From Gammaproteobacteria bacterium (GTDB lineage: Bacteria; Pseudomonadota; Gammaproteobacteria; Pseudomonadales; Pseudohongiellaceae), in the NCBI GenBank assembly GCA_029253585.1, contig JAQWZF010000008.1, positions 37,980 through 101,979 on the forward strand: a stretch of 64,000 nt of DNA. Reading direction: 5' to 3'. A program made the position numbers and the translations under genes. This document shows, piece after piece, positions 3,198-55,147 of the stretch. A model generated the notes under the pieces. The model was not told the DNA's origin, made no database searches, and worked only from the letters and a program-made list of their open reading frames with translations. How positions within the stretch are numbered: position 1 is the stretch's first letter; each line of letters begins with the position of its first letter.

Positions 3198-3220
3198 GAC
3201 GACCGAATAGAGAAGTAGAT

Positions 3221-3640: not shown

Positions 3641-3644
3641 CTTT

Positions 3645-4292: not shown

Positions 4293-4294
4293 GT

Positions 4295-5326: not shown

Positions 5327-5574
5327 AGTTCTTCCTTCTCTAGTTCGATGCGTCAGGGCGCAAGTTACCATCAGCCAGTTATCAGGGGAATAGCTGTGAG
5401 CCCTATGGGTTGCTGAGTTTGTTGTCGCCTTTTTGTTGCCTTACTATTGCCGTCGTGTAGTATGCCTTGGGGTAGAAAAAATAGGTTGATGCAAATCAGT
5501 GCGGCTGGTAAATGTCCCTTCGATGGGTGCTCAACAGTTTAGTGAACAAGTAGAAAAAAGAGTCGGAGTAATAA

Positions 5575-7116: not shown

Positions 7117-7130
7117 GGCAAGCCCAGGTA
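7104..7130. terminator. 11-bp perfect hairpin between convergent genes
   Basis: TACCTGGGCTT-AGGGC-AAGCCCAGGTA overlaps the symporter stop codon. There is no clear U-run, so function is uncertain. Confidence 0.4.
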
Positions 7131-7147
7131 TAGCTTTCAGTGAAGTG

Positions 7148-8713: not shown

Positions 8714-8819
8714 GTTGAGGCTCTCCTTCTGGCTACAAGCACCCGCGAAATTTGTTCGCGGAAAAGCTGGTTATCATAGCATCAAAGGCAGAGTCGGCAA
8801 GTATCAGAGGGTTGGCGAA

Positions 8820-9169
8820 TTGGCACTAAGTAAAGAGCAGCGCGAGTATGTCGCGCACATTGTCGACCTGTTGCAAGTCATCGGTCCGGTGGCTTCGGGT
8901 TATTTATGGAAGGCTTGATGTTCGGCCTTATCGCCGACAATGAACTCTATCTGAAAGTCGATGCGCAGAATCTGCAGGACTATGAAGACTTGGGCTTGCA
9001 GGCATTTAGCTATGGCTAGAGTGGGAAGGAATTTAAGATGAGTTACTTTCAGGCGCCGGAAGAGGCGATGGATGACAGTGAGTTGTTAAGCGTCTGGGCA
9101 TCCAATGCCTATGGTGCTGCAATGCGGGCTGCCGCGAAGAAGGGAAAACACGCTAAGACCAAGAAATAG
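8820..9169 (+). pseudogene. TfoX/Sxy-family (N-terminal-domain type) gene, disrupted
   Basis: Frame A reads ALSKEQREYVAHIVDLLQVIGPV. Frame +2 continues GGFGLFMEGLMFGLIADNELYLKVDAQNLQDYEDLGLQAFSYG, then TAG at 9017..9019, then in-frame SGKEFKMSYFQAPEEAMDDSELLSVWASNAY. That is one frameshift near 8880-8895 plus one internal stop. Confidence 0.6.
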
Positions 9170-9226
9170 TGCTACCTGAATTGATGAGGGGCTGTAGATG
9201 TTTTGTATCGATGAGAAACTTGGGGC

Positions 9227-9270
9227 AGGTGTTTATAGGGTGGGTGTTTATCGGGTAGGTGTTTAATAGA
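9227..9270 (+). repeat. Three direct repeats of GGTGTTTA at exact 15-nt spacing
   Basis: AGGTGTTTATAGGG / TGGGTGTTTATCGGG / TAGGTGTTTAATAGA. Located about 70 nt upstream of the 9341 CDS. Confidence 0.6.
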
Positions 9271-9340
9271 TGCCAGCCCTTATTTGGTTTACACTCCACA
9301 GCAGTTATTTTAGTAATTTTACAGTCTATGGGAGAACGCC

Positions 9341-10336
9341 ATGAAAATTCGAAATCTTTGTTTCAGTGCTCTTGCGGCGGCGGGGCTGAGTGTTCCCGTG
9401 ACTGGCGTACAGGCACAAGACAGTGACTATGTGGTGCCGCGAACGGAATACGGGCAGCCCGACCTGAGTGGTGTATGGAATTTTAGTTCATTCGTCCCTA
9501 TGCAGCGCCCCCGGCAATTTGCCGACAAGGAGTTTCTGACTCCGGAAGATATCGCCGCCATAGCGAATCAGACTGAGGCGGGTCTGGAGGCGCTGAATAA
9601 TATCGGAGTGGGTGGCTACAACACCTTCTGGGTAGAAAATGCAGGTCGTGGTGACAATACGCGCACTTCGCTGATTAACTACCCGGAGAACGGAAGAGTC
9701 CCAGAAACGGTTGAGGGTGTGCCCGTGCAGATCGGCGGTCTTGGACCGGACGAACCAGGCATGCGACCCGTGCGTATGACTGTGGGTGGAATAGCGAAAG
9801 ATGGCCCGGAAGATAGAGGCCTGTCAGAGCGTTGTATCGTTGGTTTTAATTCGGGACCGCCTTTTACTCCTAATCTGTACAATAACAATGTGCAACTGGT
9901 GCAGAGTAAAGATCACGTCGTGATAATGACCGAGATGATCCACGATGCGCGCATCGTTCCCTTGGATGGTCGTGATCATATCGATGACAGTATTCGGCAA
10001 TGGTCGGGCGACTCTCGTGGATATTGGGATGGCGATACGCTCGTTGTCGAAACCAGAAACTTCAATGATTTGACGCAGAGCTTCAGTGTCTTTGGTAGTT
10101 CCCTCGATAAGGTGCTGACGGAAAAATTCACCCGCGTGGATGAGTTTACAGTTGATTATGAGTTTACCGTAGAAGACCCGAGTACTTTTAAAGACAAGAT
10201 AACGGTACTGCTGCCAATGGCCAAGGTCGATGGCCTGATGTACGAATATGCCTGCCATGAAGGCAACTATGGCATGGTTAACATCCTGCGCGGTGAGCGT
10301 ATGGAAGAGCAGCGTGCAAGTGAGGGTGCTAGATAG
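9341..10336 (+). CDS. Exported protein of unknown function
   Basis: Sec signal peptide (MKIRNLCFSALAAAGLSVPVTGVQA|QD) and GGAGAA RBS. C-terminal YEYACHEGNYGM motif. No family recognised. Confidence 0.6.
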   Translation: MKIRNLCFSALAAAGLSVPVTGVQAQDSDYVVPRTEYGQPDLSGVWNFSSFVPMQRPRQFADKEFLTPEDIAAIANQTEAGLEALNNIGVGGYNTFWVENAGRGDNTRTSLINYPENGRVPETVEGVPVQIGGLGPDEPGMRPVRMTVGGIAKDGPEDRGLSERCIVGFNSGPPFTPNLYNNNVQLVQSKDHVVIMTEMIHDARIVPLDGRDHIDDSIRQWSGDSRGYWDGDTLVVETRNFNDLTQSFSVFGSSLDKVLTEKFTRVDEFTVDYEFTVEDPSTFKDKITVLLPMAKVDGLMYEYACHEGNYGMVNILRGERMEEQRASEGAR

Positions 10337-10405
10337 CTAAGTGCTGGTCGGAACATGGATCTTCCAGCCGGCCAGCCAAACAGCCAAACAGAAAGAAAGA
10401 CAGAA

Positions 10406-10443
10406 GAAAAAGGCGAGGAGCTTCAAACTTACTCGCCTTTTTT
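10406..10443. terminator. Bidirectional rho-independent terminator
   Basis: AGGCGAG-14 nt loop-CTCGCCT, flanked by an A-run upstream and T6 downstream, between convergent genes. Confidence 0.6.
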
Positions 10444-10447
10444 GTGT

Positions 10448-11430
10448 CTAGGAACCTTCCGGGTCTAGCGAGATCATGTGAGATTTGGCGTAACGATCAC
10501 CGTGCACTTTATCTCCACTAAATATCTCTCCCGCCAGAGCGAGATCTTCTGCAGCGATCGATAGTTCTGACGCCTTCGCGTTTTCCTCAACGAATTTCAC
10601 ATGTTTGGTGCCGGGTATTGGCACGAAGTTCGGGTCTTGTGCCAGCACCCAGGCTAGTGCGAGCTGTGCCATAGTGCATGAGTAGGATTCGGCCATCTCC
10701 CGCAGGGCTGCTAACTGCTTGAGGTTCTGTTGAAAGCTTTCACCCAGAAACCTAGACATGGTCTGTCGCATGTCATCTTCGCCTAACACAGACATATCGC
10801 TTATCACGCCGGCGAGAAACGCTCTGCCTAGCGGGCTGAAGGGCACAAAGCCTATGCCCAGTTCTCTGCAGCAATCGAACACCTTGTGTTCGGGCTCGCG
10901 AGACCACAGTGAATATTCAGACTGCACGGCACAGATCGGATGTTCGCGGTGGGCTTTGCTGATAGTGCTTGAAGAGCATTCAGACAGACCGATATAACGA
11001 ATCTTGCCGGAAGCGACGCAGTCGGCGAGTGCGCCCACGCTCTCTTCGATGGGAACGTTGAAGTCGCGGTGATGAAGATAGTAGAGGTCGATGACATCGG
11101 TGTTTAGTCGGCGCAGGCTTTATCACAGGTTTTCTTAACGTTATCGGGGGTGCAATCGACTGCTCGCTTGCCATCACGGTTTACTATGCCGCACTTGCTG
11201 GCAAGAACGAACTCCTCGCTCCTGCCCGGCAGGACTTCGCCTATCAAAGTCTCATTGTGGCCAAGCCCATAGAGGCTTGGGGTGTCCAGGAAGGTGTAGC
11301 CGACATCCAGAGCCCGGTGCAGGGCGCGCTCCGACTCTTCCCGATTTGCGGCGCCGTAGGATTGGGACATGCTCATGCAGCCCAGACCCAGAGCCGATAC
11401 CTGTAATTCTCCGAGTTGGCGTGTCTGCAT
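10448..11430 (-). pseudogene. Aldo/keto reductase, frameshifted
   Basis: The N-terminal fragment (11104..11430) ends ...[12 protein letters not shown]. The C-terminal frame reads [47 protein letters not shown]..., immediately preceded by TGA TAA. The junction lies at an A3 run (about 11113-11115), and one extra A would restore ...[12 protein letters not shown].... Confidence 0.75.
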
Positions 11431-11674
11431 ATCGATTTCTCCCTGTGTGATTTAGTGTCTTCAGCCCGCTGGATAGCCCTGAATACCAGCATGATTATCT
11501 AGCTTGCCTGCCGCTGCGTTAGCTGCCCTGATACAAATGAATGCTTGTTCAGATTCTGTTCAGACTTGCTCGCGTATAGTTGGGTTGTTAGCAAAAGAGC
11601 CCTAGCGACAGGCAAGCCTCACAAACCCCACTTTTTCTTTAGCCTGTTTGCTGGTAGCACTGTCTGCCGCAAAT

Positions 11675-11714
11675 CCTCACTCAACTAATGGCGGTTAGGG
11701 AGTGGGGATTTTTT
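11675..11714 (+). terminator. Orphan terminator-like hairpin with U-run in an intergenic region
   Basis: CCTCACTC (11675..11682) pairs with GAGTGGGG (11700..11707; one G.U), followed by A and T6 (11709..11714). No + strand CDS lies upstream of it. Confidence 0.4.
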
Positions 11715-11724
11715 ATTTCAGCAG

Positions 11725-13254
11725 GTGCCTCAGGCACTGACCCCATTGACCGATTCTATTACGAGAGAAACCCTCTCATCCTCTTGTTTGATCGGCAGTA
11801 AATCTTTGATAAGATTGCAAATGCCTCGCAATCACAATAACAAGACAGTGGCTCTCAACGTTCGGATGAATTTTCCCTCTCATGCAGGCCGCTATTCACC
11901 TAACTGGCAGACAGTAAGGGCTTTTGCATCGGTGCTGCTGATGCTCGGTCTGTTTATCCTGCCCCTAAGCCGAGTTGTCGCCCTAGAGGCTATCGAATCC
12001 CCCGATCAGTCCACGCTGCCTGCGGATATGAGTGCCGTGCACTTCTATTTAATCACCGTAGATGTCGGTGACAGGATATGGGACAACTTCGGTCATACCG
12101 CGCTGCGTGTCATCGACGAGGATGCAAATATCGACCTGGTGTTTAACTGGGGGCTTTTTCGTATCAATGGCGGTCCCGTCGCCTTCTCCTACAATTTTTT
12201 CAAGGGGATTATGAATTACGAGTTGGGCACAAAACCGCCTAATCAGGAATTCGCGATGTATCGCGCGCAGGAGCGCAGTGTCTGGCAGGACAAGATTAAT
12301 CTCACCAACCCGCAGAAAGAAATTCTCTACACTCGTCTGTTATGGAACTCGCAGCCCGAGAACATCGTCTACCCCTATCAATACTTCTTCGATAATTGTA
12401 CGACCCGTGTACGGGACTATCTGGATGAGGCTCTTTCCGGTCGACTGGCGGTATTCAAGGATGGCTTAACTGATTCTACGTTCCGCGACCAAGTACGAGC
12501 GCACTATGAATCCGTGGCGCTTATTGATTTCTCCCTCGATGTATTGATGAACAGCAATATCGATAGACCGATGACTGAGTGGGAAGCTATGTTCCTGCCG
12601 CTTACTTTAAGAGAACAGCTCTATCTGGTCGAATCCGATGTGGCGGAGGACGGAGTGCGTAATATGCTGCTCTCCGGTTCGCAGCAGATTATGCTGTTTC
12701 CTCCACCTACGGTTGAGACGGACCCTTACCAGATAGCGTCGATAACACTATTGGCGCCAGTGCTGCTGTTATTCCTGATGTTGAAGAAGATTCCCATGTC
12801 GTATTTTGCAACACACTCGCGCTTAGGCTTGAATCTACCCGGAATCAATTTTCGCCTACTTGGTTTGCTGGGTATTCTGGTGGCTCTATTCAGCGGTGTC
12901 TACGGTATCTTGATGTTGGGCAGCTGGTTTGTGTCAGGCCACCTGGATCTGCACCACAATATCAACCTGCTTCTGTTCTGGCCGACGGATCTGCTGGGTA
13001 TCTTCGTCGCACTGCGTTGGCTTATTTTTTGTAGGCCATGGCCCATGACGCGCAATAGCGCGCCATTCTTGAATTACTACATGATGGCCCATGTGTTTGG
13101 TATGGCCGTTTATGCGGCCGTGACATTCTTGCAGCTGGCGGGTCAATCTACTTTGAATATCAGCTTATATGTTCTGCCCGGCCTAACACTGTTCACTGTG
13201 CTTGTCTGGCTGGTTGGATTCGAGCCGGCGAAACCCAGGAATAGTTTTTTCTAG
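11725..13254 (+). CDS. DUF4105-like (Lnb N-terminal domain) membrane protein
   Basis: The segment FYLITVDVGDRIWDNFGHTALRV resembles DUF4105. The C-terminal half has several TM helices. The true start is probably internal (ATG at about 11821 or 11866, before the hydrophobic signal/anchor). Confidence 0.55.
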   Translation: MPQALTPLTDSITRETLSSSCLIGSKSLIRLQMPRNHNNKTVALNVRMNFPSHAGRYSPNWQTVRAFASVLLMLGLFILPLSRVVALEAIESPDQSTLPADMSAVHFYLITVDVGDRIWDNFGHTALRVIDEDANIDLVFNWGLFRINGGPVAFSYNFFKGIMNYELGTKPPNQEFAMYRAQERSVWQDKINLTNPQKEILYTRLLWNSQPENIVYPYQYFFDNCTTRVRDYLDEALSGRLAVFKDGLTDSTFRDQVRAHYESVALIDFSLDVLMNSNIDRPMTEWEAMFLPLTLREQLYLVESDVAEDGVRNMLLSGSQQIMLFPPPTVETDPYQIASITLLAPVLLLFLMLKKIPMSYFATHSRLGLNLPGINFRLLGLLGILVALFSGVYGILMLGSWFVSGHLDLHHNINLLLFWPTDLLGIFVALRWLIFCRPWPMTRNSAPFLNYYMMAHVFGMAVYAAVTFLQLAGQSTLNISLYVLPGLTLFTVLVWLVGFEPAKPRNSFF

Positions 13255-13274
13255 ATCCGACCCCTGAGTTCAGG

Positions 13275-14255
13275 ATGCCCTATTACATGACGAAACTAAT
13301 TAGCTCAGTAGCGCAACGAGCAGATGAGTTACATCCGATGGCGGCGAAAGTCGCCAGGGCTGCCGCCAGGCAGAAGCCTCTGGGTGAATGCACCGCCGTG
13401 GAGGCCAGAGCCATGCGCGAGGAGCGCGGCAATCCCTTTGCGCCAGAAGCTGTTGCGATGGAAAGTATTACGGATCATTGGCTGCCTGGCGGCGCGGGGC
13501 AGTTGCGGGTGCGGCGCTATCAGCCCATGGCGACTCAGTCCGAGCTGCAGCCGGCTCTCCTTTATTTTCATGGGGGTGGTCATGTGCTGGGTACGCTAGA
13601 CGGCTATGACACCGTCGCCCAGCAGCTGGCGCTATTAGGAAATTGCGTGGTGTTTTCGGCTGAATATCGACTGGCGCCGGAGACGAAGTCTGCGGACATC
13701 TATCAAGATGGCCTCGATATCTACAATTGGCTACTCCACGGCGGCTCCGATTTAGGCATAGACCCGAATCGTATCGCGATAGGCGGTGACAGCGCCGGCG
13801 GCAACATCTCCATTGCGGTAATGCTGCAGTGCAAGCAGCAGAACATCGCGCAGCCTTGCTATCAGATTCTGATATATCCGGCCATAGACTATCGCATGGC
13901 GTATCCGTCCATCGACGAGTTTGCAGAAGGGTATTTTCTGACCAAGGCCGATAAGCAATGGTTTCGAAGTCAGTTTCTTGAGTCAGACGAGCGGGCGAGC
14001 AACCCTCTGGTGTCATCTATACTCGCAGATCTTGGCGGCCTGCCTCCAGCACTGGTAATTACGGCGGGCTTCGACCCCTTGCGTGATGAGGGCGAAGCCT
14101 TCGCAAAACGTTTAGCGGATCATGGCGTGCCGGTTGAACATGTTTGCTATATGGATATGATTCACGCCTTCGTGTCGTTTGCCGGCGGAATTCCTGCGGG
14201 AATGTCGGCCTTGGAGCGCATCGGCGCGAAGCTGCAGAAAGCCTTTAGCAACTAA
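13275..14255 (+). CDS. Alpha/beta hydrolase, HSL-type esterase/lipase
   Basis: Oxyanion HGGG motif (LLYFHGGGHVLG), nucleophile elbow GDSAGG and a C-terminal DPLRDEG / His region. Confidence 0.8.
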   Translation: MPYYMTKLISSVAQRADELHPMAAKVARAAARQKPLGECTAVEARAMREERGNPFAPEAVAMESITDHWLPGGAGQLRVRRYQPMATQSELQPALLYFHGGGHVLGTLDGYDTVAQQLALLGNCVVFSAEYRLAPETKSADIYQDGLDIYNWLLHGGSDLGIDPNRIAIGGDSAGGNISIAVMLQCKQQNIAQPCYQILIYPAIDYRMAYPSIDEFAEGYFLTKADKQWFRSQFLESDERASNPLVSSILADLGGLPPALVITAGFDPLRDEGEAFAKRLADHGVPVEHVCYMDMIHAFVSFAGGIPAGMSALERIGAKLQKAFSN

Positions 14256-44692: not shown

Positions 44693-45400
44693 CTAGACTT
44701 CCAGCCATTCGCCGCGCACGTCGTCGGCCTTGAGCAGGCTTTCGGGGGTGCCTTCGTAGACGATCTTGCCGTGGCCCATGACGTAAAGACGCTTGGATAT
44801 CTTCAGTGCGATGGAGAGCTTCTGTTCTACCAGCAAGATGGAGACGCCGCGGTTGGCGATCTCCTGTAGCAATTGAGCCAGTTGCTCGACGATCTTCGGA
44901 GCTAGGCCTTCGGTGGGCTCGTCGATCATGATCATATCGGGGTCGCCCATTAGGGTTCGGCACATACATAACATCTGCTGTTCGCCACCACTGAGTGCGC
45001 CGCCATGAACGTCGCCGCGTTCGGCAAGGTTTGGAAACATACTGAATATCTCTTCTAAGTTCCAGCGACCCTGAGGCTTGTTCGATTTCATGCCGAGAAC
45101 CAGGTTCTGTCGCACCGTCAGTGACGGAAAGATATCTCGATTTTCCGGTACATAGCCCAGACCTAGATGGGCGATCTCGAAACTCTTCTTGCCGGCAATT
45201 TCCTGCCCCTTAAATTCTATAGACCCCTGTGGAGCGACTTCACCCATTATAGTCTTGACCGTTGTCGAACGGCCTACGCCGTTGCGTCCTAACAGACTGA
45301 CTATCTCTCCCTTACCGACGTGAAAGTTCACACCTTGTAAGATGTGGCTCTTTCCGTAGTAGGCGTGAAGGTCGCTGACTTTAAGCACTGGGCACCTCAC
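44693..45400 (-). CDS. ABC transporter ATP-binding protein (LivF-like)
   Basis: Walker A GRNGVGRST, signature LSGGEQQM, Walker B MIMIDEP. Confidence 0.9.
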   Translation of the reverse strand: MRCPVLKVSDLHAYYGKSHILQGVNFHVGKGEIVSLLGRNGVGRSTTVKTIMGEVAPQGSIEFKGQEIAGKKSFEIAHLGLGYVPENRDIFPSLTVRQNLVLGMKSNKPQGRWNLEEIFSMFPNLAERGDVHGGALSGGEQQMLCMCRTLMGDPDMIMIDEPTEGLAPKIVEQLAQLLQEIANRGVSILLVEQKLSIALKISKRLYVMGHGKIVYEGTPESLLKADDVRGEWLEV

Positions 45401-46130
45401 CGAGATAGGCTTCCTGCACCTTGGGGTTGGCGCGAATATTTTCGGGTTTGTCGGTGGCGATGATTTCTCCGTAGACGAGTACAGAGATGCGATCGGCTAC
45501 GTCGAATACAATATTCATATCGTGCTCGACCATGACCAGGGTCTTGCCTTCGGTAATATTGCGAATGAGTTGCACTGAGCTCTCGGCCTCGCTATGACTC
45601 ATGCCTGCTACCGGCTCGTCTAACATGATCAGCTCGGCACCGCTGGCGATAGCGATGCCCAGCTCTAATGCTCTTTGCTGTGCGTAGCCCAATTCTCCCG
45701 AAGGGAGCAGGGCCTTATCTTTGAGGCCTATCTGTTCCAATACATCCATGGCCTTATCATTTAATTCCCTTTGGCGTCCTAATAGATGCCAGAACGAATA
45801 GCGGTAGCCCTTAGACCAGAGAAGGGCGCAACGCACATTCTCGAACACATTCATGCGCGGGAAGATATTGGTAACCTGAAAGCTGCGTGCCAGGCCCATT
45901 CTCGCGATCTCATAGGGTGGCAGGTTCTCTATCTGGTCTTGCTTGAAGCGGATGTTGCCGGAAGTCAGCTGATAACGGCCACTAATAAGATGGAACAGGG
46001 TCGATTTTCCGGCGCCGTTCGGTCCAATGATCGCGTGTTTCTCTCCCTCGACTATGTCCAGGGAGACACCGCGTATGATCTGGGTTTCACCAAAATTTTT
46101 CTGCACATTGGTTAGGGAGAGTATGGTCAT
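45381..46130 (-). CDS. ABC transporter ATP-binding protein (LivG-like)
   Basis: Walker A GPNGAGKST, Walker B LIMLDEP and the LivG-type C-terminal extension (NPKVQEAYLG). Confidence 0.9.
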   Translation of the reverse strand: MTILSLTNVQKNFGETQIIRGVSLDIVEGEKHAIIGPNGAGKSTLFHLISGRYQLTSGNIRFKQDQIENLPPYEIARMGLARSFQVTNIFPRMNVFENVRCALLWSKGYRYSFWHLLGRQRELNDKAMDVLEQIGLKDKALLPSGELGYAQQRALELGIAIASGAELIMLDEPVAGMSHSEAESSVQLIRNITEGKTLVMVEHDMNIVFDVADRISVLVYGEIIATDKPENIRANPKVQEAYLGEVPSA

Positions 46131-46132
46131 TT

Positions 46133-47368
46133 CTAGGTCTGCTCATCTTTGGAGATTGCGTTCGCAGTCTCCCATGCCTCATTGAGCTGGCCTAGCGATT
46201 TTCTGGTCGCAAAGAAGGTGCAGCCGAAAAGTGCCAACGCTACCACCCATGTGACTGAGCTTGATGTATTCAAGGCCATGCCGAGGAAGTGAAATATTTC
46301 ATCTTCGGTATGGCTCATCTCAATCAATAAGATTGCGGTTAGGGTAAACAGAATCGCAGGAACACCCGTGATAATGTAGGGCTTAATCAACAGCGTCAAA
46401 GTGCCGCGAACCCATGCCACCTGATGCATCATGATGAGCCCGGCAAAGCCCCTGGGTAGAAACATAACCGTTAGCAAGAACATGATGCCCAAATAGAGCA
46501 TCCACAGTTCTGAATAATTACTGAGTAGAGAGTTCATCAGTGTAAGAATCACCGCGCCGATTATCGGGCCGATGAAATAGCCCAGGCCACCGATGTATGC
46601 CATCAGCAATACGCGACCCGAAGTCGCTGCGTTCAGATTTTCCTCGGTGATGAACTCGTAGTTGAGGGCAAACAGTCCGCCGGCAATGCCAGCGAACAGG
46701 CCCGACGCGCAGAACGAAATGAAGCGCACTTTACGTGCGCTGTAGCCGATAAACTCGGCGCGTTCGGGATTGTCACGAACGGCATTCGCCATGCGCCCGG
46801 CAGGTGTTTGCGTGAACAGATACATGAACAGGGTGGCGAGAAAGACCCAGAATGTAGCAACGTAGTAGATGTCTATGTTCTGGGTGAAGTCGACGCCGAA
46901 GAACGTGGGGCCAAAGGTGCGATCGCCACTGATGCCAGCCTCGCCGCCGAAGAAGCTGGAGAAGATGAGTGACGAGGCGGCGATGAGTTCGCCTATGCCT
47001 AGTGAGATCATCGCGAATACGGTGCCGGCCTTGCGTGTGGAGAAGCTGCCGATAAAGAGTCCGGCGAGAAGTCCAAACAGCCCTCCAATCAACGGTATCC
47101 ATAGTATGGAAAATACCATGGTCTCGAACTCGATGAGTATCAGGGCGTGTACCGACAGAAACCCTCCCAGCCCGAAGTAGACCGCATGGCCAAAAGACAG
47201 CATGCCGCCCTGGCCTAGCAACATGTTGTAGCTGAGGGCGAAGACTATCGCTATCGCCATCTGATTCAGGATGGAGATGGCTAGTATGGTATCGAATATC
47301 TGCGGCATCCCGAGGAGTGCGACGGCGAAGGCAATCCAGATTGCTGATTTCTTAAGCATCGCCATCAT
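46133..47368 (-). CDS. Branched-chain-amino-acid-type ABC permease (LivM-like)
   Basis: 411-aa polytopic protein. Contains GQGGMLSFGHAVYFGLGGF, typical of LivM-family permeases. Confidence 0.85.
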   Translation of the reverse strand: MMAMLKKSAIWIAFAVALLGMPQIFDTILAISILNQMAIAIVFALSYNMLLGQGGMLSFGHAVYFGLGGFLSVHALILIEFETMVFSILWIPLIGGLFGLLAGLFIGSFSTRKAGTVFAMISLGIGELIAASSLIFSSFFGGEAGISGDRTFGPTFFGVDFTQNIDIYYVATFWVFLATLFMYLFTQTPAGRMANAVRDNPERAEFIGYSARKVRFISFCASGLFAGIAGGLFALNYEFITEENLNAATSGRVLLMAYIGGLGYFIGPIIGAVILTLMNSLLSNYSELWMLYLGIMFLLTVMFLPRGFAGLIMMHQVAWVRGTLTLLIKPYIITGVPAILFTLTAILLIEMSHTEDEIFHFLGMALNTSSSVTWVVALALFGCTFFATRKSLGQLNEAWETANAISKDEQT

Positions 47369-48315
47369 TCTTCTCGCTTGCCTAATAAACCTGTGGGCCG
47401 GAATATCAGCACCAGGACCAAGAGCAGAAACGGTAATACCGGTGCAATCTGCGGCAGGTTTATTGTCCAGAGGTCGTTCAGTGGATGGTCTCTGGCGAAT
47501 GAGATGCCGAGCAAGTTAAGTAAATCAGGCATGCCCACATCGGAGGCGATGGCATAGGATTGCAGCAGGCCGATCATTAATGATGCGATGAACGCGCCGG
47601 CGAGTGAGCCCAGGCCACCGATGACGACGATTACAAACACGATACTACCTAACACCGTCGCCATACCTGGGAATGTCGTAAGCACTGGTCCGGCGATTAC
47701 GCCAGCCAATCCGGCGAGTGCTGTCCCGACGCCGAATACGCCCATGAATATCAGCGGCACATTGTGGCCGAGATTGGCGACCGTCTGTGGATGTGTGATG
47801 GCGGCCTGAATGATGATGCCGACACGGCTCTTGGTCAGTACGTAGTAAAGGGCGATAAAGATGCCGATAGAGATCGTCATCATGAAACCGCGATAGGCAG
47901 AAAATTCCTGCCCGAACAATGTGAACAGAGGGAAGTCCAGAAGGTCTGGCGTCTGATAATTTTTGGTGTCGCGGCCCCAGAAAAATTGCACGGCCTCTTC
48001 GATGAGAAAGGCGAGCCCGAAGGTAAACACGAGTTCCGCTACATGTCCTGACTGGTGAACCCGTCTCAGGCCATAGCGTTCGATGAGGGCGCCAAGCAAG
48101 CCGACTATCAGTGGGGCGAAAATGAGGCCGGTCCAGAAACCGAAGTAGAGGCTAATAGAATAGGCGACGTAGGCACCTAGCATATAGAAGCTGGCGTGGG
48201 CGAAATTCAGAACGCCCATCATGCTGAATATGAGAGTTAGGCCGCTGGCTAACATAAACAATAGAAAGCCGGTAACTAGGCCATTAAGTGTGGCGAAAAT
48301 GAATACTTCTAGCAT
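47365..48315 (-). CDS. Branched-chain-amino-acid-type ABC permease (LivH-like)
   Basis: 316-aa polytopic protein. Contains GVLNFAHASFYMLGAY. 4-nt overlap with the downstream permease. Confidence 0.85.
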   Translation of the reverse strand: MLEVFIFATLNGLVTGFLLFMLASGLTLIFSMMGVLNFAHASFYMLGAYVAYSISLYFGFWTGLIFAPLIVGLLGALIERYGLRRVHQSGHVAELVFTFGLAFLIEEAVQFFWGRDTKNYQTPDLLDFPLFTLFGQEFSAYRGFMMTISIGIFIALYYVLTKSRVGIIIQAAITHPQTVANLGHNVPLIFMGVFGVGTALAGLAGVIAGPVLTTFPGMATVLGSIVFVIVVIGGLGSLAGAFIASLMIGLLQSYAIASDVGMPDLLNLLGISFARDHPLNDLWTINLPQIAPVLPFLLLVLVLIFRPTGLLGKREE

Positions 48316-48383
48316 GCTGGCCTTGGCGCTTACCTGATTTCGTGTGTTTTACAGCACTTTTTTCGTTGTCGGTCTCAGAAATT

Positions 48384-49673
48384 TTAACGCCGTGGTGGTC
48401 TCATCTTGCAACTGCTTTCAACGATAGTATCTTCCTTGGGTACCTGGTATTCGGTACGCAGTCCCCATCCGGAATTGTCAGCATCGAATTCTATGTCCTC
48501 ATCGGTATGCACCGAGATACTAAGTGACTGGAAAATCTGATGATCGTCGCCTCGCATCCAGATCTCCTCGTTGCCTATAGTGGTGAAGCGCATATCCTCC
48601 AGCGCCACAGCAATGTCATAAGGGTCGGTACTCTGGGTCTGTTCCATCGCCGTAACCACCATTTGCAGGGCGTTGAGTATGCGCGGTTGGGTTACATCGA
48701 AGTTTGGATTCTCTGCTTTAAAGTCGTGATTAAACTGTTTGCGTTCTTCGCTTGGCAGCGGATTGGCGACTCCGTTGTGAATCAGTCTGATCCTGTTCTT
48801 GCCGCCTTCGCCCAGTGTCGCGGTAATTCCATCGTAGGCCGCATAGAAAGTATAGATAGGTATGTCCAGGCCAGAGTCGATGATCGATCTGGCGAGGGAG
48901 ACCATATCGGCACCAAAGTTGCCGGTAATCACGGCGTCGGCGCCGGAGGAGACTATCTTGGTTACGTAGGGCGTAAAGTCTTTCACCTGACCGATGGGGT
49001 GGAACTCGTTGCCCACTATTTCGATGTCGGGGCGCTTCTGTTTCAACAATTCTATGGAGGTGTCTGACACTACCTGACCGAATGAATAGTCCTGGCCGAT
49101 GATATACATGCTCTTTATATCAGGGTCGGCAGCGATATAGTCGGTAAGGATGTTTAGCTTCATGTTGGCGTGTGCATCGAAACGGAAGTGCCAGAAGCTG
49201 CAGTTCTCTTCTGTGAGAATAGGGTCTACGGCAGAGTAATTTATCTGCAGGACTTCTTGTCCGGGGTTGCGCCGATTATGTCTGGATATAGTTTGGTTTA
49301 GTGTGTTGGCAACGGCCGAGCTATTACCCTGAAATATTATTTGGATGTCATCGCTGACAGCTCTGCGAAATTGTAGCTGAGTCTCGTTGGGGCTCTGCTT
49401 ATTGTCGAGAGGCACGATTTCAATCATGCGCCCTCCCAATATGCCGCCTCTGGAATTGTAGTAGTAGTCTGCCGAGAACTGCAGAATTTTCAAGCCTGTG
49501 TTACCTATCGATGCAAAGGTGCCAGACAGAGGATCCATGAAGGCGATGCGCACGGGTTCCTGGGCGGTACTTAGACTGCCCAGGCTCAGGGTGCTGACCA
49601 GACTAAGCGTCGTTAGCAGCTTGCGAATAGGCTGGGAAATGACAATAAGGGCTTGGAAGTTTCTCATAGGCAA
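48384..49673 (-). CDS. Periplasmic substrate-binding protein (type I PBP, LIV family)
   Basis: Signal peptide, then VRIAFMDPLSG... First gene of the five-gene - strand operon. The ATG at 49667 is an alternative start. Confidence 0.8.
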   Translation of the reverse strand: MPMRNFQALIVISQPIRKLLTTLSLVSTLSLGSLSTAQEPVRIAFMDPLSGTFASIGNTGLKILQFSADYYYNSRGGILGGRMIEIVPLDNKQSPNETQLQFRRAVSDDIQIIFQGNSSAVANTLNQTISRHNRRNPGQEVLQINYSAVDPILTEENCSFWHFRFDAHANMKLNILTDYIAADPDIKSMYIIGQDYSFGQVVSDTSIELLKQKRPDIEIVGNEFHPIGQVKDFTPYVTKIVSSGADAVITGNFGADMVSLARSIIDSGLDIPIYTFYAAYDGITATLGEGGKNRIRLIHNGVANPLPSEERKQFNHDFKAENPNFDVTQPRILNALQMVVTAMEQTQSTDPYDIAVALEDMRFTTIGNEEIWMRGDDHQIFQSLSISVHTDEDIEFDADNSGWGLRTEYQVPKEDTIVESSCKMRPPRR

Positions 49674-50045: not shown

Positions 50046-50456
50046 ATGCTTATGATAAAAATTGCAGTAACTGAAGTCGAATTTGTTGCCATCCGTGCCA
50101 GCGGCCCCGGCGGACAAAATGTGAATAAAGTGTCGACTGCCGTACAGCTGAGATTCGATGTGCGCCGTTCCAGCCTGCCCCGCGAGATCAAAGAGCGGTT
50201 GTTAGCGCATGCCGATGCCCGTATAAACAGCGAGGGCTGTGTCGTGATAAGGGCACAACGCTTTAGAAGTCAGGAGAAGAACAAGCAAGATGCAATAGAG
50301 AGATTGCAGAATTTGATAGCAGCGGCAGCGCACGAGGACAAGAAGAGAATTGCGACCAGGCCGGGTAGGGCGTCGAAGGAGAGGCGCTTACTGCAGAAGA
50401 AGAAAACCGGCGATAAGAAAACGGGTAGGGGTTCCGTGCGTTCCTATGACCAATAG
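50046..50456 (+). CDS. arfB: Alternative ribosome-rescue factor ArfB (peptidyl-tRNA hydrolase, YaeJ-type)
   Basis: GGQ motif in RASGPGGQNVNKVSTAVQLRFD, plus a basic C-terminal tail (KKKTGDKKTGRG). Confidence 0.85.
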   Translation: MLMIKIAVTEVEFVAIRASGPGGQNVNKVSTAVQLRFDVRRSSLPREIKERLLAHADARINSEGCVVIRAQRFRSQEKNKQDAIERLQNLIAAAAHEDKKRIATRPGRASKERRLLQKKKTGDKKTGRGSVRSYDQ

Positions 50457-51425: not shown

Positions 51426-52610
51426 TTAGTAGACCTCGAACAGCCCAGCAGCACCCATGCCACCGCCAACACACATCGTGCAGACTACATACTTTGCGCC
51501 ACGACGCTTGCCTTCAATAAGCGCGTGTCCGACCATGCGTGCACCACTCATACCGTAGGGGTGGCCGATAGAGATGGCGCCACCGTTTACGTTGAGAAGT
51601 TCATTAGGTATGCCAAGCTTGTCACGGCAGTAAATAACCTGCACCGCGAATGCTTCGTTCAGCTCCCACAGGCCGATGTCATCCATCTTCAAGTTGTTGC
51701 GTTCTAACAGCTTGGGTATAGCGTAGATTGGGCCGATTCCCATCTCATCCGGGTCCAGACCTGCAACTGCCATGCCGCGGTAGGCGCCCAGGGGTTGTAG
51801 GCCTTTCTGCTCGGCTAGCTTGCTGTCCATAATCACAGAAGCCGATGCGCCATCTGATAATTGACTGGCGTTGCCTGCGGTGATTACGCCGCTATCGAAA
51901 ACCGGCTTCAAACCTTGCAGACCCTCGAGCGTAGTAGAGGGACGGTTGCCCTCATCTTTCTCTAGCTTGGTGTCGTGGACGCTTTGCTGTTTTGTTTCCT
52001 TGTCCATGAACAGCATCTTCGATGCCATAGGCACGATCTCGTCGTCGAAAGCGCCTTCCTGTTGTGCAGCCGCTGTGCGTTGCTGCGACTGAAACGCATA
52101 CTCGTCCATCTGATCGCGCGACACATTGTAGCGCTTGGCAACAATCTCGGCCGTCTCTAGCATAGACATATAGGCATGCTCAGATTTGGCAATCACGTTA
52201 GGATCCTGTGCGCGATAGGCATTGCGGTGCTCGTTCTGTACCAGGGAGATAGAGTCCAGACCACCACCGACAACGATGGGCATGCCGTCACTGATAACCT
52301 GCTTCGCGGCCGTGGCGATAGCCATCATGCCCGAGGCGCATTGGCGGTCCATGCTCATGCCAGCGACAGAACTTGGCAAACCGGCAGCAACTCCTGCCGT
52401 GCGTCCGATGTTATAACCGGAGGAACCTTGCTGCATCGCACAGCCTATTACCACATCATCTACTTCGCCCGGATCGATACCGGCACGTTCAACCGCTGCA
52501 GCAATTGCATGGCCTCCCAGAGTAGGGGCATCGGTGTCATTGAAGGCACCTCTATAAGCTTTGCCTATGGGAGTGCGTGCTGTTGATACAATTACTGCTT
52601 CTTTGGACAT
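51426..52610 (-). CDS. Acetyl-CoA C-acetyltransferase (thiolase II)
   Basis: MDRQCASGM active-site Cys, [21 protein letters not shown] and CVGGGMG. The ATG at 52610 follows GGAGA. Confidence 0.9.
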
Positions 52611-52687
52611 TCTATTCTCCATCTATAGTAAAAATTTGTGCGGACAGGCCGCAACAATCTTGAAACTCTAGTAAACTGCTCTTGAAA

Positions 52688-53215
52688 CTACTTCTTGCCA
52701 CAGATCAATGCGGTGACCGCCTCGATCGAATCTTCTGCCAGCTTCGCCATTTCCTCATTGGTGCGATCTTGAATGGGATGGGCGACGAACACGTTCAGAG
52801 GCGATATGCCCAGAGACTTGCCTTGGGCCGCGGCGGCATCGACAAATTCTTCCGATGCTACAAAGCCGGAAGGAACTCCTCTACTTTCTAAGTCCATGAT
52901 GTCATGCAAACTGCACGAGGTACATGAGCCTCAGTCGGCGAGTCCTTCGATTACTGCGTCACATTCGACGCTAATACGCTGTGTTAATTCCGTTGGCGCA
53001 ACCCGTGTGAAGGTTGGCTTGGAATAGCGTTTAACCTTGGCGCCGGCCTGTTCCAGGTGCTTCTGGACTTCGTCCAGAAATTCTTTGCCGCGGGGCTTGG
53101 AAATATCGAGCAGGCCGATAGTAGCGCCCGCAAGACTCGCTAGCCGTGGCAATAGCTGTCTTGCCGACGTCTGTAGCTCTGCTGTCGGATCCAGAAGGGT
53201 TGTTGGGCTTTGCAT
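52688..53215 (-). CDS. Candidate selenoprotein with U-G-S-C motif (TGA at 52931..52933 read as Sec); UGSC-type (seleno)protein
   Basis: ORF-track fragments 52931..53215 and 52688..52909 share one frame, separated by TGA plus 7 sense codons. Read-through gives ...ISVECDAVIEGLAD-U-GSCTSCSLHDIMDLESRG.... The ATG at 53215 has an AGAGGA RBS, while the downstream fragment has no ATG or RBS of its own. Confidence 0.65.
52902..52927 (-). promoter_or_regulatory. Candidate SECIS-like hairpin 3' of the in-frame UGA
   Basis: In the - strand RNA, UCAUGUA (52927..52921) pairs with UGCAUGA (52908..52902). That is 7 bp including one G.U, which would be a C.A mismatch on the other strand. The 12-nt apical region contains GU, and the stem begins 6 nt after the UGA. 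Confidence 0.35.
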
Positions 53216-53263
53216 ATTTTTCCTCTTTCTTTCAGTTATTTCGTTTAACTGCGGTCTATTGTC

Positions 53264-54724
53264 TTACAACTTCGTTGATACGAGCTGGCTGCCGCGTTCT
53301 CCAGAGGCTACCCAGCCTCCGATGATGGCGGAAAACATTCCGGCTGTGCCACCGGTGGTAACGATGTGTAGTCCATCGTCGCGAAACTTGTTGAGTACCT
53401 TGTCTTTAAATTTTTCCGGCATGCCCTCCGCGATGTCATTTGCGCCGCGTACGATCTCAGTACCAGGTGTCATTAATTTTTCGTAGAGCGCCTTGCGTAA
53501 ATCTTCTTTATTCCAGCCGCCCTCGCGGAAGACGCGGCGGTGTTCCGGGCAGACGACTAGAATTGCGTCTGCCAGCCCAAATACTTTTGTGTGCGCTACG
53601 CTGCGCAGACTCATCGCCATGCTCTTTGCCAGAGACTGTGGCGTGCGTGATTGCTGATCGAGTATCGGTTGCAGGCCATCACCAGCGAAGAGACTGATCA
53701 CAGAATCCGCTCTATCGAAACCTCGGTCCATCGACAGGCTTGCCCAGTTTTCATCGCTTTCATCTTCGGCGAAACAGTAGGTATATTTCCCCGGGTTGCC
53801 CATATTCGCACGGTCGATGCCGCCAGGAACACCACCACCGACATTGCGAATAATCAATTGCAGTGCCCGGCCAATTGTCGCATTCGCTCTATTGCCTTGC
53901 CCTAATGCATTGATGCCAGAGTTCATGCCGATCTGTTTGACGACCGGCCCGCTTACCACCATGACAGGAGAGGAGAAATACGTTGTGCACAGCAGGCCAT
54001 GCATGCAGAAACGATCTTGCAATGCGGCCTCGACGCTGGCGATAACCACCGGAAAGTATTCCGGCTTGCAGCCAGCCATGACGGCATTGATTGCTATCTT
54101 CTCGATAGAGCAGGACACGTTGTCCGGTGGAACTTTACCGATAATTTCAGCGGCGTCTCGGTCGCTGCCGTTTAGCATTCGCATAACCCGCAGGGGTGTT
54201 GGAGGAACCACCGGCAGGCCATCGCTCCAGCCTCTGTCATAGCAGGCCTCCATGATATCTTCGGCCTCCGCCAATTCAACCGCGCGAGCCTGCAGGATCT
54301 GCTTGCCGAAGCGCAGGGCGAGTACTTCATTCATGCCGGGATCTTGTGTCTTGGATCCGCAGCCAGGTTTAAAGTCGATGAGCTCGGCACCGAGTGCTTC
54401 TATGCCGGTGAAGCTCTGCCACTGCTTCTTCTCCCAGCCGTAGATGCGGGACTCTTCGGATTGGGCATCGTTACCATCGCTTAGTCGTATAAGAGTAGGT
54501 ACTACCTCTATCTCCCGTTGGTAGGAATACTCCAGGCTAGAGTCATCGATGACATCATCTATGTCAGCCGGAAAAGACGGGTCATCCTGCACATACACTT
54601 TCAGCGAAAGAGTCTCGTTATTTGCTAATGAGTGGATCACGGGTTCGATGAGCGCGCAGGTCGGGCAGTCTTTCTTAACGACCAGCGCATAATGAGTTGT
54701 TTGGTTTGCGATTGCTTGGTTCAA
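53264..54724 (-). CDS. Thioredoxin-like (CPTC) N-terminal module fused to a large uncharacterised domain
   Basis: 486 aa. N-terminus is YALVVKKDCPTCALIEPVIHSL (Trx-fold CxxC). The remaining ~350 aa (GWSDGLPVVPPTP..., AINAVMAGCKPEYFP..., GNRANATIGRALQLIIRNVGGG) match no family I recognise. TTG start after AAGGAA. Confidence 0.7.
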   Translation of the reverse strand: MNQAIANQTTHYALVVKKDCPTCALIEPVIHSLANNETLSLKVYVQDDPSFPADIDDVIDDSSLEYSYQREIEVVPTLIRLSDGNDAQSEESRIYGWEKKQWQSFTGIEALGAELIDFKPGCGSKTQDPGMNEVLALRFGKQILQARAVELAEAEDIMEACYDRGWSDGLPVVPPTPLRVMRMLNGSDRDAAEIIGKVPPDNVSCSIEKIAINAVMAGCKPEYFPVVIASVEAALQDRFCMHGLLCTTYFSSPVMVVSGPVVKQIGMNSGINALGQGNRANATIGRALQLIIRNVGGGVPGGIDRANMGNPGKYTYCFAEDESDENWASLSMDRGFDRADSVISLFAGDGLQPILDQQSRTPQSLAKSMAMSLRSVAHTKVFGLADAILVVCPEHRRVFREGGWNKEDLRKALYEKLMTPGTEIVRGANDIAEGMPEKFKDKVLNKFRDDGLHIVTTGGTAGMFSAIIGGWVASGERGSQLVSTKL

Positions 54725-54802: not shown

Positions 54803-55147
54803 CTAGTAGATAAATCCTAGGGTAGAAATACCGATGAGGATGTTAATGATCATGAAAACCGAAGAGGTCCTGGACATGACCTTCCACAGCTGCGGCCCTT
54901 TATAAGCGGCTCTTACGCCAATTATGAGCACCACGGTATAGGCCATCATTGCACCCACCATGATCAAATAAGGTACCCAGCGTTGATCGTCCACAGCGCG
55001 AGAGCCAAATACGGCGAACAGGCCAGCACCGACAATATACAGGGCCCAGTATGTAATGGCGAGACCGTAGTCTCCCCCTAACATCTTGGCCAGAAGGGAC
55101 TTTTCGCCCTCTGAATCTCTATCTACTGTCTGTTCTACGTCACTCAT
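54803..55147 (-). CDS. Small membrane protein, unknown function
   Basis: 114 aa with 3-4 TM segments. Confidence 0.45.
   Translation of the reverse strand: MSDVEQTVDRDSEGEKSLLAKMLGGDYGLAITYWALYIVGAGLFAVFGSRAVDDQRWVPYLIMVGAMMAYTVVLIIGVRAAYKGPQLWKVMSRTSSVFMIINILIGISTLGFIY

Follow-up and report, generated by a model that had tools for sequence, protein, structure and literature searches.

Does the in-frame TGA at positions 52933..52931 end a protein, or is it read as selenocysteine (Sec)? The question arises on the minus strand of the stretch of DNA analysed here (64 kb in total, hereafter the window), where the ORF list contains a 94-aa ORF (52931..53215) and a 73-aa ORF (52688..52909, with a TTG start), as a preliminary description made from the sequence had reported. 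According to that description the two share one frame and are separated only by the TGA and seven sense codons. The translation of the minus strand bears this out: the frame runs from the ATG at 53215..53213 to the TAG at 52690..52688 with the TGA as its sole internal stop, and it reads ...VECDAVIEGLAD-TGA-GSCTSCSLHDIMDLESRGVPSGF... across that codon. The whole coding sequence has 175 codons before the TAG, one for Sec (codon 95) and 174 for standard residues (Table 1). Altogether 27 pairs of ORFs joined by a TGA occur in the window. All the others are shadows of longer genes or are overlapped by annotated ORFs; this pair is neither, and it represents more than a chance arrangement. To our best explanation as a whole we give a probability of roughly 0.85, a figure weighted to the claim of recoding; that claim itself, i.e. 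that the TGA is the genuine Sec codon of a UGSC-family gene equipped with a SECIS element, we consider nearly certain.

Table 1. Positions of the gene, its predicted RNA elements and its neighbours in the window
Feature	Position	Strand	Basis or remark
g486, 486-aa partner gene	53264..54724	-	directly upstream of UGSC; Trx domain and conserved C-domain
Shine-Dalgarno-like AGAGGA	53226..53221	-	5 nt upstream of the ATG at 53215; read from the sequence
UGSC-family selenoprotein CDS, complete	52688..53215	-	single frame with one TGA; family HMMs; conservation
UGA, codon 95, almost certainly Sec	52931..52933	-	first residue of the U-G-S-C-T-S-C motif
Full predicted SECIS, lower stem engaging the UGA itself	52888..52934	-	MFE structure; pairing in relatives
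SECIS upper hairpin, predicted	52902..52918	-	fold, synonymous freeze, bSECIS criteria
Weak terminator-like hairpin (TGCGGCCTGTCCGCA then CAAATTTTTA)	52639..52653	-	35 nt after the UGSC stop
Acetyl-CoA C-acyltransferase (thiolase)	51426..52622	-	TIGR01930, 420.6 bits; Thiolase_N and Thiolase_C

The family to which the read-through product belongs could be established with profile HMMs, for which the U was replaced by C. The product scored 145.4 bits against NF041046, the 'UGSC family (seleno)protein' (cutoff 125; profile positions 2-145 of 147), and 144.8 bits against Pfam PF24696 (cutoff 25; profile positions 2-170 of 172). Each of the two alignments runs across the TGA, and the family name given in the preliminary description was the right one. 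The U/C-G-S-C motif lies at the conserved position of the family, with the TGA aligned to the Cys of the Cys-form members. The same family was described as the 'UGSC-containing protein' by Zhang & Gladyshev, who found it in aquatic bacteria, with 255 Sec versus 21 Cys forms in the GOS data, and its function is unassigned in the literature (PMC2398784, PMC1976440). Our own search returned 133 Sec-type clusters versus 14 with Cys and 2 with Ser. In its HMM scores, in the position of its motif and in the predominance of Sec over a few Cys forms the gene resembles the rest of the family, and as nothing sets it apart it is a member. The family dates back in the literature to about 2005-2008, and the gene is therefore a new, mis-annotated member rather than a new kind: the recoding call at this locus correctly identifies a known family, and no new kind of selenoprotein has been discovered.

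The TGA was found at the Sec position in all 80 related loci besides the window itself, and in all 80 it is followed in frame, at the DNA level, by GSCT[ST]C. These loci are spread over the Gammaproteobacteria, Betaproteobacteria, Alphaproteobacteria, Myxococcota, Chloroflexota, Acidimicrobiia, Latescibacterota and Hydrogenedentota. That the TGA stems from faulty sequencing or assembly, or from a nonsense mutation of recent origin (pseudogene), in one contig is a generic worry for metagenomic selenoprotein calls. It has nothing specific in its favour here, its probability is negligible, and it is refuted by the conservation of the same TGA in 80 loci, which come from independent assemblies (complete chromosomes and one cultured isolate among them), and by its presence in close relatives with 95-100% identity.

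If the TGA were a true stop, the locus would encode a 94-residue protein and the downstream frame would be either an untranslated remnant or a separate peptide of 69-73 residues. This is how public gene callers annotate the locus: as anticipated in the preliminary description they split the gene, and the public pieces (94 aa and 69 aa) each match PF24696. Moreover, TGA closes 7 of the 49 long ORFs in the window and is therefore an ordinary stop codon there, and none of selA, selB, selC and selD was found within the 64-kb window. Against a stop speaks the finding that, among 81 sequences from several phyla, the frame on both sides of the TGA is conserved as protein while synonymous sites are saturated. 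Such a pattern would not be seen in a remnant that is not translated. The family HMMs and a predicted single compact domain extend across the TGA, and the Cys forms are contiguous across this position, the ...GLAD-U-GSCTSC... of the Sec forms aligning with D-C-GSCTSC, D-C-GACSAC or D-C-GSCTSW. The Cys residues aligned to the TGA occur in real, recurrent lineages. Database homologues that end at ...GLAD do exist; because all 80 loci continue in frame at the DNA level, with the GSCT[ST]C segment conserved, these entries are gene-caller truncations. Finally, the two pieces differ in their signals for initiation as had been proposed: the upstream fragment has its ATG, with AGAGGA 5 nt before it, and the downstream fragment has neither a start codon nor a Shine-Dalgarno sequence at its beginning. 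Termination at this TGA is thus very improbable.

A similarly slight chance is given to the reading in which the UGA is translated, though not as Sec, either through a reassigned code (Trp or Gly) or through near-cognate suppression (Trp or Cys). It is suggested by a few database proteins that carry W, G or C at the Sec position. These variants have real TGG, GGA and TGT codons, which rules out that the W and G forms are products of a TGA translated under codes 4 or 25. All are found on singleton contigs, each codon is one base away from TGA, and the codons of the hairpin described below are intact. We therefore regard them as errors or recent mutants rather than as evidence of alternative decoding. 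One further database variant (P0004) has an R at the position. A reassigned code is also at odds with the use of TGA as terminator in the window, and read-through by any route other than Sec insertion leaves unexplained two features that are considered next: a SelB-type hairpin of fdhF-like geometry that is under selection and disappears when the TGA becomes TGC, and the proximity of selA, selB and selC to the UGSC gene in a cultured bacterium.

The predicted upper hairpin consists of a 5' arm at 52918..52912 (UCGUGCA), a loop at 52911..52909 (GUU) and a 3' arm at 52908..52902 (UGCAUGA). The spacer between the UGA and the hairpin is 12 nt in the window and 11 nt in most relatives, which have an extra G-C pair there, and the loop G and U are at +20/+21. 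Stem formation 3' of the UGA was part of the preliminary description, which paired 52921..52927 with 52902..52908. That 7-bp stem can form and its 3' arm is the one of the conserved hairpin, yet its 5' arm is wrong: with 52921..52927 the middle pair fails to form in 35 of 77 relatives, and the score is no better than that of shuffled controls. The conserved hairpin likewise holds a G.U pair, one that only the transcript of the coding strand can form.

The strongest indication that this hairpin is used as RNA comes from the codons at +5..+10, which are frozen (TCG in 78/79, TGC in 81/81, AGT in 79/79, TTG in 59/62 and GAC in 79/81 sequences, together with CAT in 68 and CAC in 10 of 78). The normalised synonymous entropy is 0.14 at these codons versus 0.87 elsewhere (p=2.7e-5). 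They form the 6-codon window of lowest entropy in a gene of which the synonymous sites are otherwise saturated, and their 18 nt coincide with the conserved hairpin. A Cys lineage in which TGA is replaced by TGC has the same residues, encoded by other codons, and has lost the hairpin. Within the upper stem 94% of the cells are paired, with switches between G.U and G-C. The lower helix is 78% paired across the relatives, and three of its pairs have changed on both sides (e.g. 12-41: AU 31, GU 8, CG 6, GC 2). Since the upper stem hardly varies, it offers little classical covariation, and the argument for a SECIS rests on the freezing of synonymous sites.

The hairpin was also compared with the bSECIS consensus model (PMC13188914 Fig. 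2A), which has four criteria. The model sets an apical loop of 3-9 nt, an upper stem of 4-16 bp and an MFE of at most -7.5 kcal/mol, and its loop has a G within the first two positions, usually followed by G or U (PMC13188914 Fig. 2A). The hairpin agrees with the model on all four: a loop of 3 nt is closed by a stem of 7 bp, which is extended to 8 bp in 47 of 77 relatives; the loop reads GUU in 59 of the 81 sequences, including the window, GUG in 16, GUC in 3 and GUA in 3, so that its G and U never vary; the spacing measures 19 nt; and the segment from the UGA to +43 has an MFE of -13.7 kcal/mol in the window, with none of the 81 sequences above -7.5. The upper hairpin by itself has -7.1 kcal/mol in the window and -9.4 on average. 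Hairpin energy alone did not differ significantly from shuffled sequences (z=-1.39) and was consequently not relied on. Searches of Rfam, with the whole window at the gathering threshold and with 52840-52960 at E<=10, returned no SECIS or other relevant family. In all, the identification of the hairpin as the SECIS of the UGSC gene is strongly supported by its selection at the RNA level. For binding of SelB and a need for the hairpin in UGA read-through, the synonymous freeze and the loss of the hairpin in the Cys lineage are indirect, comparative evidence.

The machinery for Sec insertion is found next to the gene elsewhere. A cultured Noviherbaspirillum (L058) has selA (580 bits), selB (420 bits) and tRNA-Sec (Rfam 72.7 bits) directly downstream of UGSC, and in the single-cell genome of a Pseudohongiella (L026) tRNA-Sec lies less than 10 kb from UGSC. 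With tblastn, selA and selB were found at the Noviherbaspirillum locus only, and in neither the window nor the other loci; selD was not found among the ORFs tested near the sel genes of the Noviherbaspirillum and the Pseudohongiella.

A second gene accompanies UGSC almost without exception. In 79 of the 80 loci the gene g486 is located directly upstream on the same strand, independent look-ups agree with this, and reverse look-ups show the two genes adjoining with a 4-nt stop/start overlap. The published accounts of UGSC that we consulted contain no description of g486 as a near-obligate partner. The g486 protein, for which more than 8000 clusters were found, starts with a thioredoxin-fold domain containing C20-P-T-C23 and the cis-Pro P76, continues with a linker motif PGC122GS, and ends with a conserved domain of about 330 aa with invariant C219, GQGNRAN, H242 and H395. 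The AF2 model (pLDDT 81.7) gave the thioredoxin fold in Foldseek at a probability of 1.0, and no significant match for the C-terminal domain. The protein has no Pfam or NCBIfam match, a permissive Pfam scan of 42 members yielded sub-threshold thioredoxin signals only, hhalign detected no relationship between g486 and UGSC, and sequence searches of the PDB gave no match for either protein. In a natural fusion (P0467, which forms a singleton cluster at 90% identity) UGSC is linked to the C-domain of g486 (E=4e-61), and one Cys lineage (P0367) has an operon of TrxB, g486 and UGSC; tblastn detected TrxB in that lineage only among the loci. Taken together, these findings indicate that UGSC and g486 probably act together.

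Clustering of the flanking genes revealed no third conserved gene, and the recurrent neighbours are of the housekeeping type (kdsB, murB, msbA/lpxK, RNase E and rluC). The thiolase gene is found downstream in only 38 of the 80 loci, all of the Pseudohongiella-like clade, and is a lineage-specific neighbour outside the conserved module. The terminator-like hairpin in front of it may possibly, as a hint, mark the end of the g486-UGSC transcript; the counts of such sites are not above the expectation from shuffling.

For a view of the fold, UGSC was modelled on a natural TGT variant (P0001), 59% identical to the window protein. The AF2 model (pLDDT 91.3) shows a single compact domain of five beta-alpha units, with the Sec/Cys after strand 3. 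The Foldseek matches in the PDB comprise lumazine synthase, the B12 domain of MttC, CheY-like proteins and flavodoxin fusions; the best 50 include no thioredoxin. The fold is therefore predicted to be flavodoxin-like and not thioredoxin-like, at variance with the 'likely Trx-like fold' that was proposed in 2008 (Zhang & Gladyshev; PMC2398784, PMC1976440).

The proposed mode of action can be outlined as follows. The UGA at codon 95 is almost certainly decoded as Sec by the standard bacterial route, in which the stem-loop within the coding sequence, (G)UCGUGCA/UGCAUGA(C) with its G-U-N loop, would serve as the SECIS and recruit SelB.GTP.Sec-tRNA(Sec) to the ribosome. In the modelled fold the Sec would be placed at the end of strand 3, at the N-terminus of a helix, and the U-x-x-C pair would cycle between the selenol/thiol and the selenenylsulfide state. 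The CxxC of the g486 Trx domain could pass reducing equivalents to or from this pair, with NADPH as the likely ultimate electron source via thioredoxin reductase, and the large conserved C-domain of g486 may be the part that handles the substrate. For a specific thiol/selenol relay between the two proteins, as the gene context suggests, we consider the odds to be about even. More tentatively, and with some doubt, we put forward that g486 and UGSC constitute a selenoenzyme of two components, widespread and self-contained, that has so far gone undescribed as such. The C-domain of some 330 residues would then be a new catalytic domain, and the flavodoxin-fold UGSC, in which Cys hardly ever stands in for Sec, its dedicated redox or carrier partner, fed by the Trx domain in cis.

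The alternative that survives best accepts UGSC as a real selenoprotein, and holds that U-x-x-C-x-x-C, together with Cys85, is the binding site of a metal or iron-sulfur cluster and that g486 either serves in maturation or delivery or is itself an Fe-S enzyme. C-x-x-C-x-x-C is a classic spacing for cluster binding, which the UGSC motif shares, and the third Cys of the motif is kept in 81/81 Sec forms. The g486 protein itself has conserved cysteines (Cys122, Cys219 and Cys317), and the only structural resemblance of its C-domain is to the class I Fe-S fumarate hydratases. That resemblance is weak (probability around 0.55) and not significant (E=5e-3, TM 0.2), and it was not relied on. In several Cys-form lineages W, A or S takes the place of the third Cys, and two Sec loci have V instead of Cys85; a site with four ligands is therefore not conserved. 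The Trx domain of g486 and the linkage with TrxB point to dithiol chemistry instead, and we consider a metal or cluster site unlikely.

The reading of UGSC as a selenoprotein has practical consequences, since this gene and thousands alike are split or truncated in the public databases: in one search, orphan C-terminal fragments made up 133 of the 150 representative clusters. The frozen 18-nt hairpin is a simple DNA signature that could serve to repair such gene calls. The function of UGSC has become testable through the specific partner gene, the natural fusion, the TrxB operon, the flavodoxin-like fold and the block of genes in the cultured Noviherbaspirillum, where g486, UGSC, selA, selB and tRNA-Sec are found together.

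Several known systems can be set beside the locus. The best-characterised bacterial SECIS is that of E. coli fdhF. Like it, the UGSC hairpin is positioned in the coding sequence directly 3' of the UGA, with a spacer of 11 nt (in most UGSC relatives), the loop G and U at +20/+21 and a 3' arm with UGCA at +23..+26; the apex is UGCA-G(G)U(C)-UGCA in fdhF and UGCA-GUU-UGCA in UGSC. The two differ in the loop, which is a tetraloop GGUC in fdhF versus a triloop GUN in UGSC, and in the 5' arm, where fdhF has a bulged U at +14, whereas UGSC lacks it and has a G.U or G-C pair inside the stem. With the selenoproteins of the thioredoxin fold (Trx-like, Prx-like and DsbA-like) UGSC shares a redox-type UxxC motif at a strand-to-helix junction. 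It differs from them in that its own modelled fold is flavodoxin/Rossmann-like and the thioredoxin fold resides in the partner g486.

The closest parallel in terms of organisation may be GrdA, the small selenoprotein that works with thioredoxin and thioredoxin reductase in glycine reductase. Both are small selenoproteins (about 17-19 kDa) with a Sec/Cys pair three residues apart, encoded beside a larger substrate-handling protein (a role proposed for g486 in the case of UGSC), and in one lineage a thioredoxin reductase with a thioredoxin module adjoins UGSC. There is no sequence relationship, as the Pfam scan of UGSC gives PF24696 only, and no homologues of GrdB, GrdC, GrdD or GrdE were found near UGSC. 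Moreover, the motif is CxxU in GrdA versus UxxC in UGSC, and GrdA belongs to anaerobes that ferment amino acids, whereas the hosts of UGSC are aerobic marine and freshwater bacteria. The analogy is thus one of working logic only and not of membership. If the two-component selenoenzyme proposed above is real, g486 and UGSC would be the counterpart, in aerobic bacteria, of the GrdA-type 'small selenoprotein shuttle', acting on a possibly abundant marine substrate.

The preliminary description proposed that an in-frame TGA in a minus-strand gene of the window is recoded as selenocysteine (Sec). The reading frame runs from an ATG, preceded at 5 nt by AGAGGA, to a TAG, with this TGA as its sole internal stop, and its read-through translation around the TGA is ...RISVECDAVIEGLAD*GSCTSCSLHDIMDLESRGVPSGF... 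In the ORF list the gene appears, exactly as had been described, as an upstream piece of 94 aa with an ATG start and a downstream piece of 73 aa with an internal TTG start. TGA terminates 7 of the 49 long ORFs in the window and is thus an ordinary stop codon here, and among the 27 TGA-joined ORF pairs this is the sole credible one. It is also the rarest stop (TAG 23, TAA 19; GC content 51%); TAG as the commonest stop is unusual in bacteria.

When U is entered as C, the read-through product matches NCBIfam NF041046 'UGSC family (seleno)protein' at 145.4 bits (cutoff 125), which bears out the family name given in the preliminary description, and Pfam PF24696 at 144.8 bits; each match extends across the TGA. 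The UGSC family is already known from selenoproteome surveys of the Sargasso Sea, GOS and Olavius, which place it among the major aquatic families of selenoproteins, with unknown function (GOS counts: 255 Sec versus 21 Cys; PMC2398784, PMC1976440). It was described there as 'likely Trx-like' and as fused at times to a domain termed 'Unknown_1' (PMC2398784), and a 2026 review still counts it as uncharacterised. The gene thus adds a mis-annotated member to a selenoprotein family that was already known, a finding of modest novelty. The in-frame TGA is real, and its interpretation as a Sec codon is supported by the family match, the conservation of the TGA and the evidence for a SECIS element.

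Features of the window and of the compared loci
Sequence	Feature	Coordinates	Strand
Window	UGSC gene	52688..53215	-
Window	UGSC start codon (ATG, first base)	53215	-
Window	UGSC in-frame TGA	52933..52931	-
Window	UGSC stop codon (TAG)	52690..52688	-
Window	g486 (partner gene)	53264..54724	-
Window	114-aa predicted membrane protein	54803..55147	-
Window	ArfB-type gene (136 aa)	50046..50456	+
Window	ABC transporter operon	44693..49673	-
L058 (NZ_JBDFLX010000001.1)	g486-UGSC-selA-selB-tRNA-Sec block	8559..14070	
L057 (Myxococcota MAG)	'tRNA-Val(cac)' call	12511..12606	-
L082 (ENA ERZ25071914 contig_11)	locus with GGA for TGA	1479..3543	
L091 (Logan SRR31724253 contig)	UGSC-g486C fusion operon	821..9678	

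Homologues in the databases are of two kinds: many have 96-106 aa and end exactly at EGLAD, and a few are of full length. Homologues consistently ending at GLAD, or a lack of conservation of the GSCTSC segment, had been named as evidence against recoding. At the DNA level, 80/80 loci have a TGA at the aligned codon and read on in frame into GSCT[ST]C; they come from Gammaproteobacteria (Pseudohongiella, SAR86, OM182, Halioglobus) as well as Noviherbaspirillum, Rhodospirillaceae, Myxococcota, Chloroflexota, Acidimicrobiia, Latescibacterota and Hydrogenedentota. Since residues are conserved over the ~75 codons 3' of the TGA while synonymous sites are saturated, this region is translated; the entries ending at GLAD are gene-caller truncations, which rules out that objection. 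In a relative of 95% identity the callers give pieces of 94 and 69 aa, both matching PF24696, which is the kind of splitting that had been foreseen. Of the best 150 representative clusters from a search with the C-terminal piece, 133 were orphan fragments, whereas 14 span the site with an aligned Cys and 2 with a Ser. The latter (P0371, SGACATC; P0460, SGSCATC) may be inactive or differently functioning paralogues, as Ser at this position should abolish the U/CxxC redox couple.

In three close 'full-length' variants the codon is TGT, TGG or GGA, each one base off TGA, and each variant is on a singleton contig with intact hairpin codons; these variants reflect errors or recent mutation, not an alternative decoding. 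In the GGA locus (L082) the upstream partner gene g486 is split into ORFs of 304 and 185 aa and a CoA-transferase is also in two pieces, so that the contig looks either indel-rich through long-read errors or like a decaying locus.

In the minimum free energy fold a hairpin lies immediately 3' of the UGA, but its energy by itself does not stand out (z=-1.39). The decisive argument comes from comparison across loci: the freezing of synonymous sites points to a SECIS element. Codons +5..+10 from the UGA (S-C-S-L-H-D) are nearly fixed as TCG (78/79), TGC (81/81), AGT (79/79), TTG (59/62), CAT (68/78, with CAC in 10/78) and GAC (79/81), whereas at other positions of the gene these amino acids are encoded by the full range of codons. 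Normalised synonymous entropy is 0.14 here versus 0.87 at 84 other conserved codons (Mann-Whitney p=2.7e-5), the lowest of any six-codon window in the gene. The 18-nt hairpin, (G)UCGUGCA-GUN-UGCAUGA(C), is 94% paired, switches between G.U and G-C at one pair and has an invariant loop G-U; the lower stem is 78% paired, with both-sided changes at three pairs. Of the stem drawn in the preliminary description the 3' arm was correct, but the 5' arm is not conserved. All four features of the published bacterial SECIS model (PMC13188914, Fig. 2A) are present: a 3-nt loop with a 7-8-bp stem, G followed by U in the loop, a spacing of 19 nt to the UGA, and an energy of -13.7 kcal/mol. An established Cys lineage (P0367) provides a natural control: it encodes the same S-C-S as TCA TGT TCG, allows only 4/7 hairpin pairs and lacks the G-U loop. 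The E. coli fdhF SECIS, as read from MG1655, has in common with the UGSC element an 11-nt spacer, G/U at +20/+21 and a 3' arm UGCA at +23..+26; in fdhF, G23 and U24 are the SelB contacts.

No tRNA, selA or selB was found in the 64-kb window. In the cultured Noviherbaspirillum sp. 1P10PC (L058), g486 (the 486-aa partner gene), UGSC, selA (TIGR00474, 580 bits), selB (TIGR00475, 420 bits) and tRNA-Sec (called by ARAGORN; Rfam RF01852, 72.7 bits) follow each other in this order on one strand. This compact block is possibly a mobile island that carries the selenoprotein with its own machinery, and its occurrence in a culturable isolate offers a ready experimental system. A tRNA-Sec (62 bits) also lies within 10 kb in a single-cell genome of Pseudohongiella, which belongs to the same clade as the window. 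A 96-nt ARAGORN 'tRNA-Val(cac)' at 2 kb from UGSC in a Myxococcota MAG is confirmed by no Rfam tRNA family and is probably a false positive.

What is conserved as a unit is the gene pair g486-UGSC. In 79/80 loci the partner gene is the immediate upstream neighbour in the same orientation (50-95% identity), and in reverse look-ups from divergent g486 homologues a split UGSC gene was in every case the next gene downstream, the two overlapping by 4 nt (stop/start). The flanks of the 80 loci contain no further gene that recurs across clades: the linkage of the downstream thiolase is limited to the Pseudohongiella-like clade (38 loci), and the membrane protein immediately upstream of g486, which has no family match, is conserved throughout that clade (37/80 loci) but not beyond it in other phyla. 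Three genes from UGSC, and probably incidental, is an ArfB-type peptidyl-tRNA hydrolase/ribosome-rescue factor with a GGQ motif (PF00472 in a close relative). The window also contains a five-gene ABC transporter operon of the urea/branched-chain amino-acid type (substrate-binding protein, two permeases, two ATPases), whose substrate is uncertain because scores are below the equivalog cutoffs.

The g486 family comprises >8000 clusters at 90% identity, is covered by neither Pfam nor NCBIfam models, and its names in public records go no further than 'thioredoxin family protein' or 'thioredoxin'. Its invariant residues include C20-x-T-C23, P76, PGC122GS, C219 (in AINAVMAGC), GQGNRAN, H242 and H395. 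In the AF2 model (pLDDT 81.7) the N-terminal domain clearly takes a thioredoxin fold; for the C-terminal domain (~330 aa) there was no significant match in the PDB, and its resemblance to class I fumarate hydratase is too weak to be used.

A natural fusion, P0467 (560 aa; a singleton at 90% identity), joins a Cys-form UGSC domain (PF24696, 152 bits) to the g486 C-terminal domain (37% identity, E=4e-61). Since its operon is intact and its domain order reverses the gene order, it is no read-through artefact, and it may correspond to the 'UGSC/Unknown_1' fusion of 2008. The fusion operon of L091 also holds an NMT1-type ABC transporter, two PGA_cap (CapA-like) genes and an MmgE/PrpD-family gene, neighbours that may hint at the substrate class. 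Another apparent fusion, the g486-UGSC read-through P0357 (651 aa, on a high-GC contig), is a mis-called ORF, a garbled Arg/Ala-rich off-frame translation over much of its length. In a recurrent Cys lineage the operon order is GntR, thioredoxin reductase (TIGR01292, 387 bits), g486, UGSC; among the compared loci TrxB linkage was seen in this lineage only.

A confident structure model built on the TGT variant P0001, 59% identical to the window protein, predicts five beta-alpha units (pLDDT 91.3) with the Sec/Cys at the strand-3/helix-3 junction. The PDB structures that it matches have flavodoxin-like folds (lumazine synthase, the MttC B12 domain, CheY-like proteins, flavodoxin fusion partners), and none of the top 50 is a thioredoxin; the predicted flavodoxin-like fold contradicts the Trx-like guess of 2008. 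The main rival for the chemistry is a metal or Fe-S site. Conservation centres on a [U/C]-G-[S/A]-C core, and the third Cys of the motif, although invariant in Sec forms, gives way to W, A or S in several Cys forms, which favours a selenenylsulfide couple. Such a selenenylsulfide pair would exchange electrons with the CxxC of the g486 thioredoxin domain and serve the g486 C-terminal domain, with thioredoxin reductase as the putative ultimate donor. Three additions, namely the definition of the SECIS, the g486-UGSC module with the evidence from the fusion and from TrxB, and the correction of the fold, jointly make the function of the UGSC family experimentally approachable. The proposed relay resembles in its working logic that of glycine reductase GrdA with Trx and TrxB, to which it has no sequence relationship.
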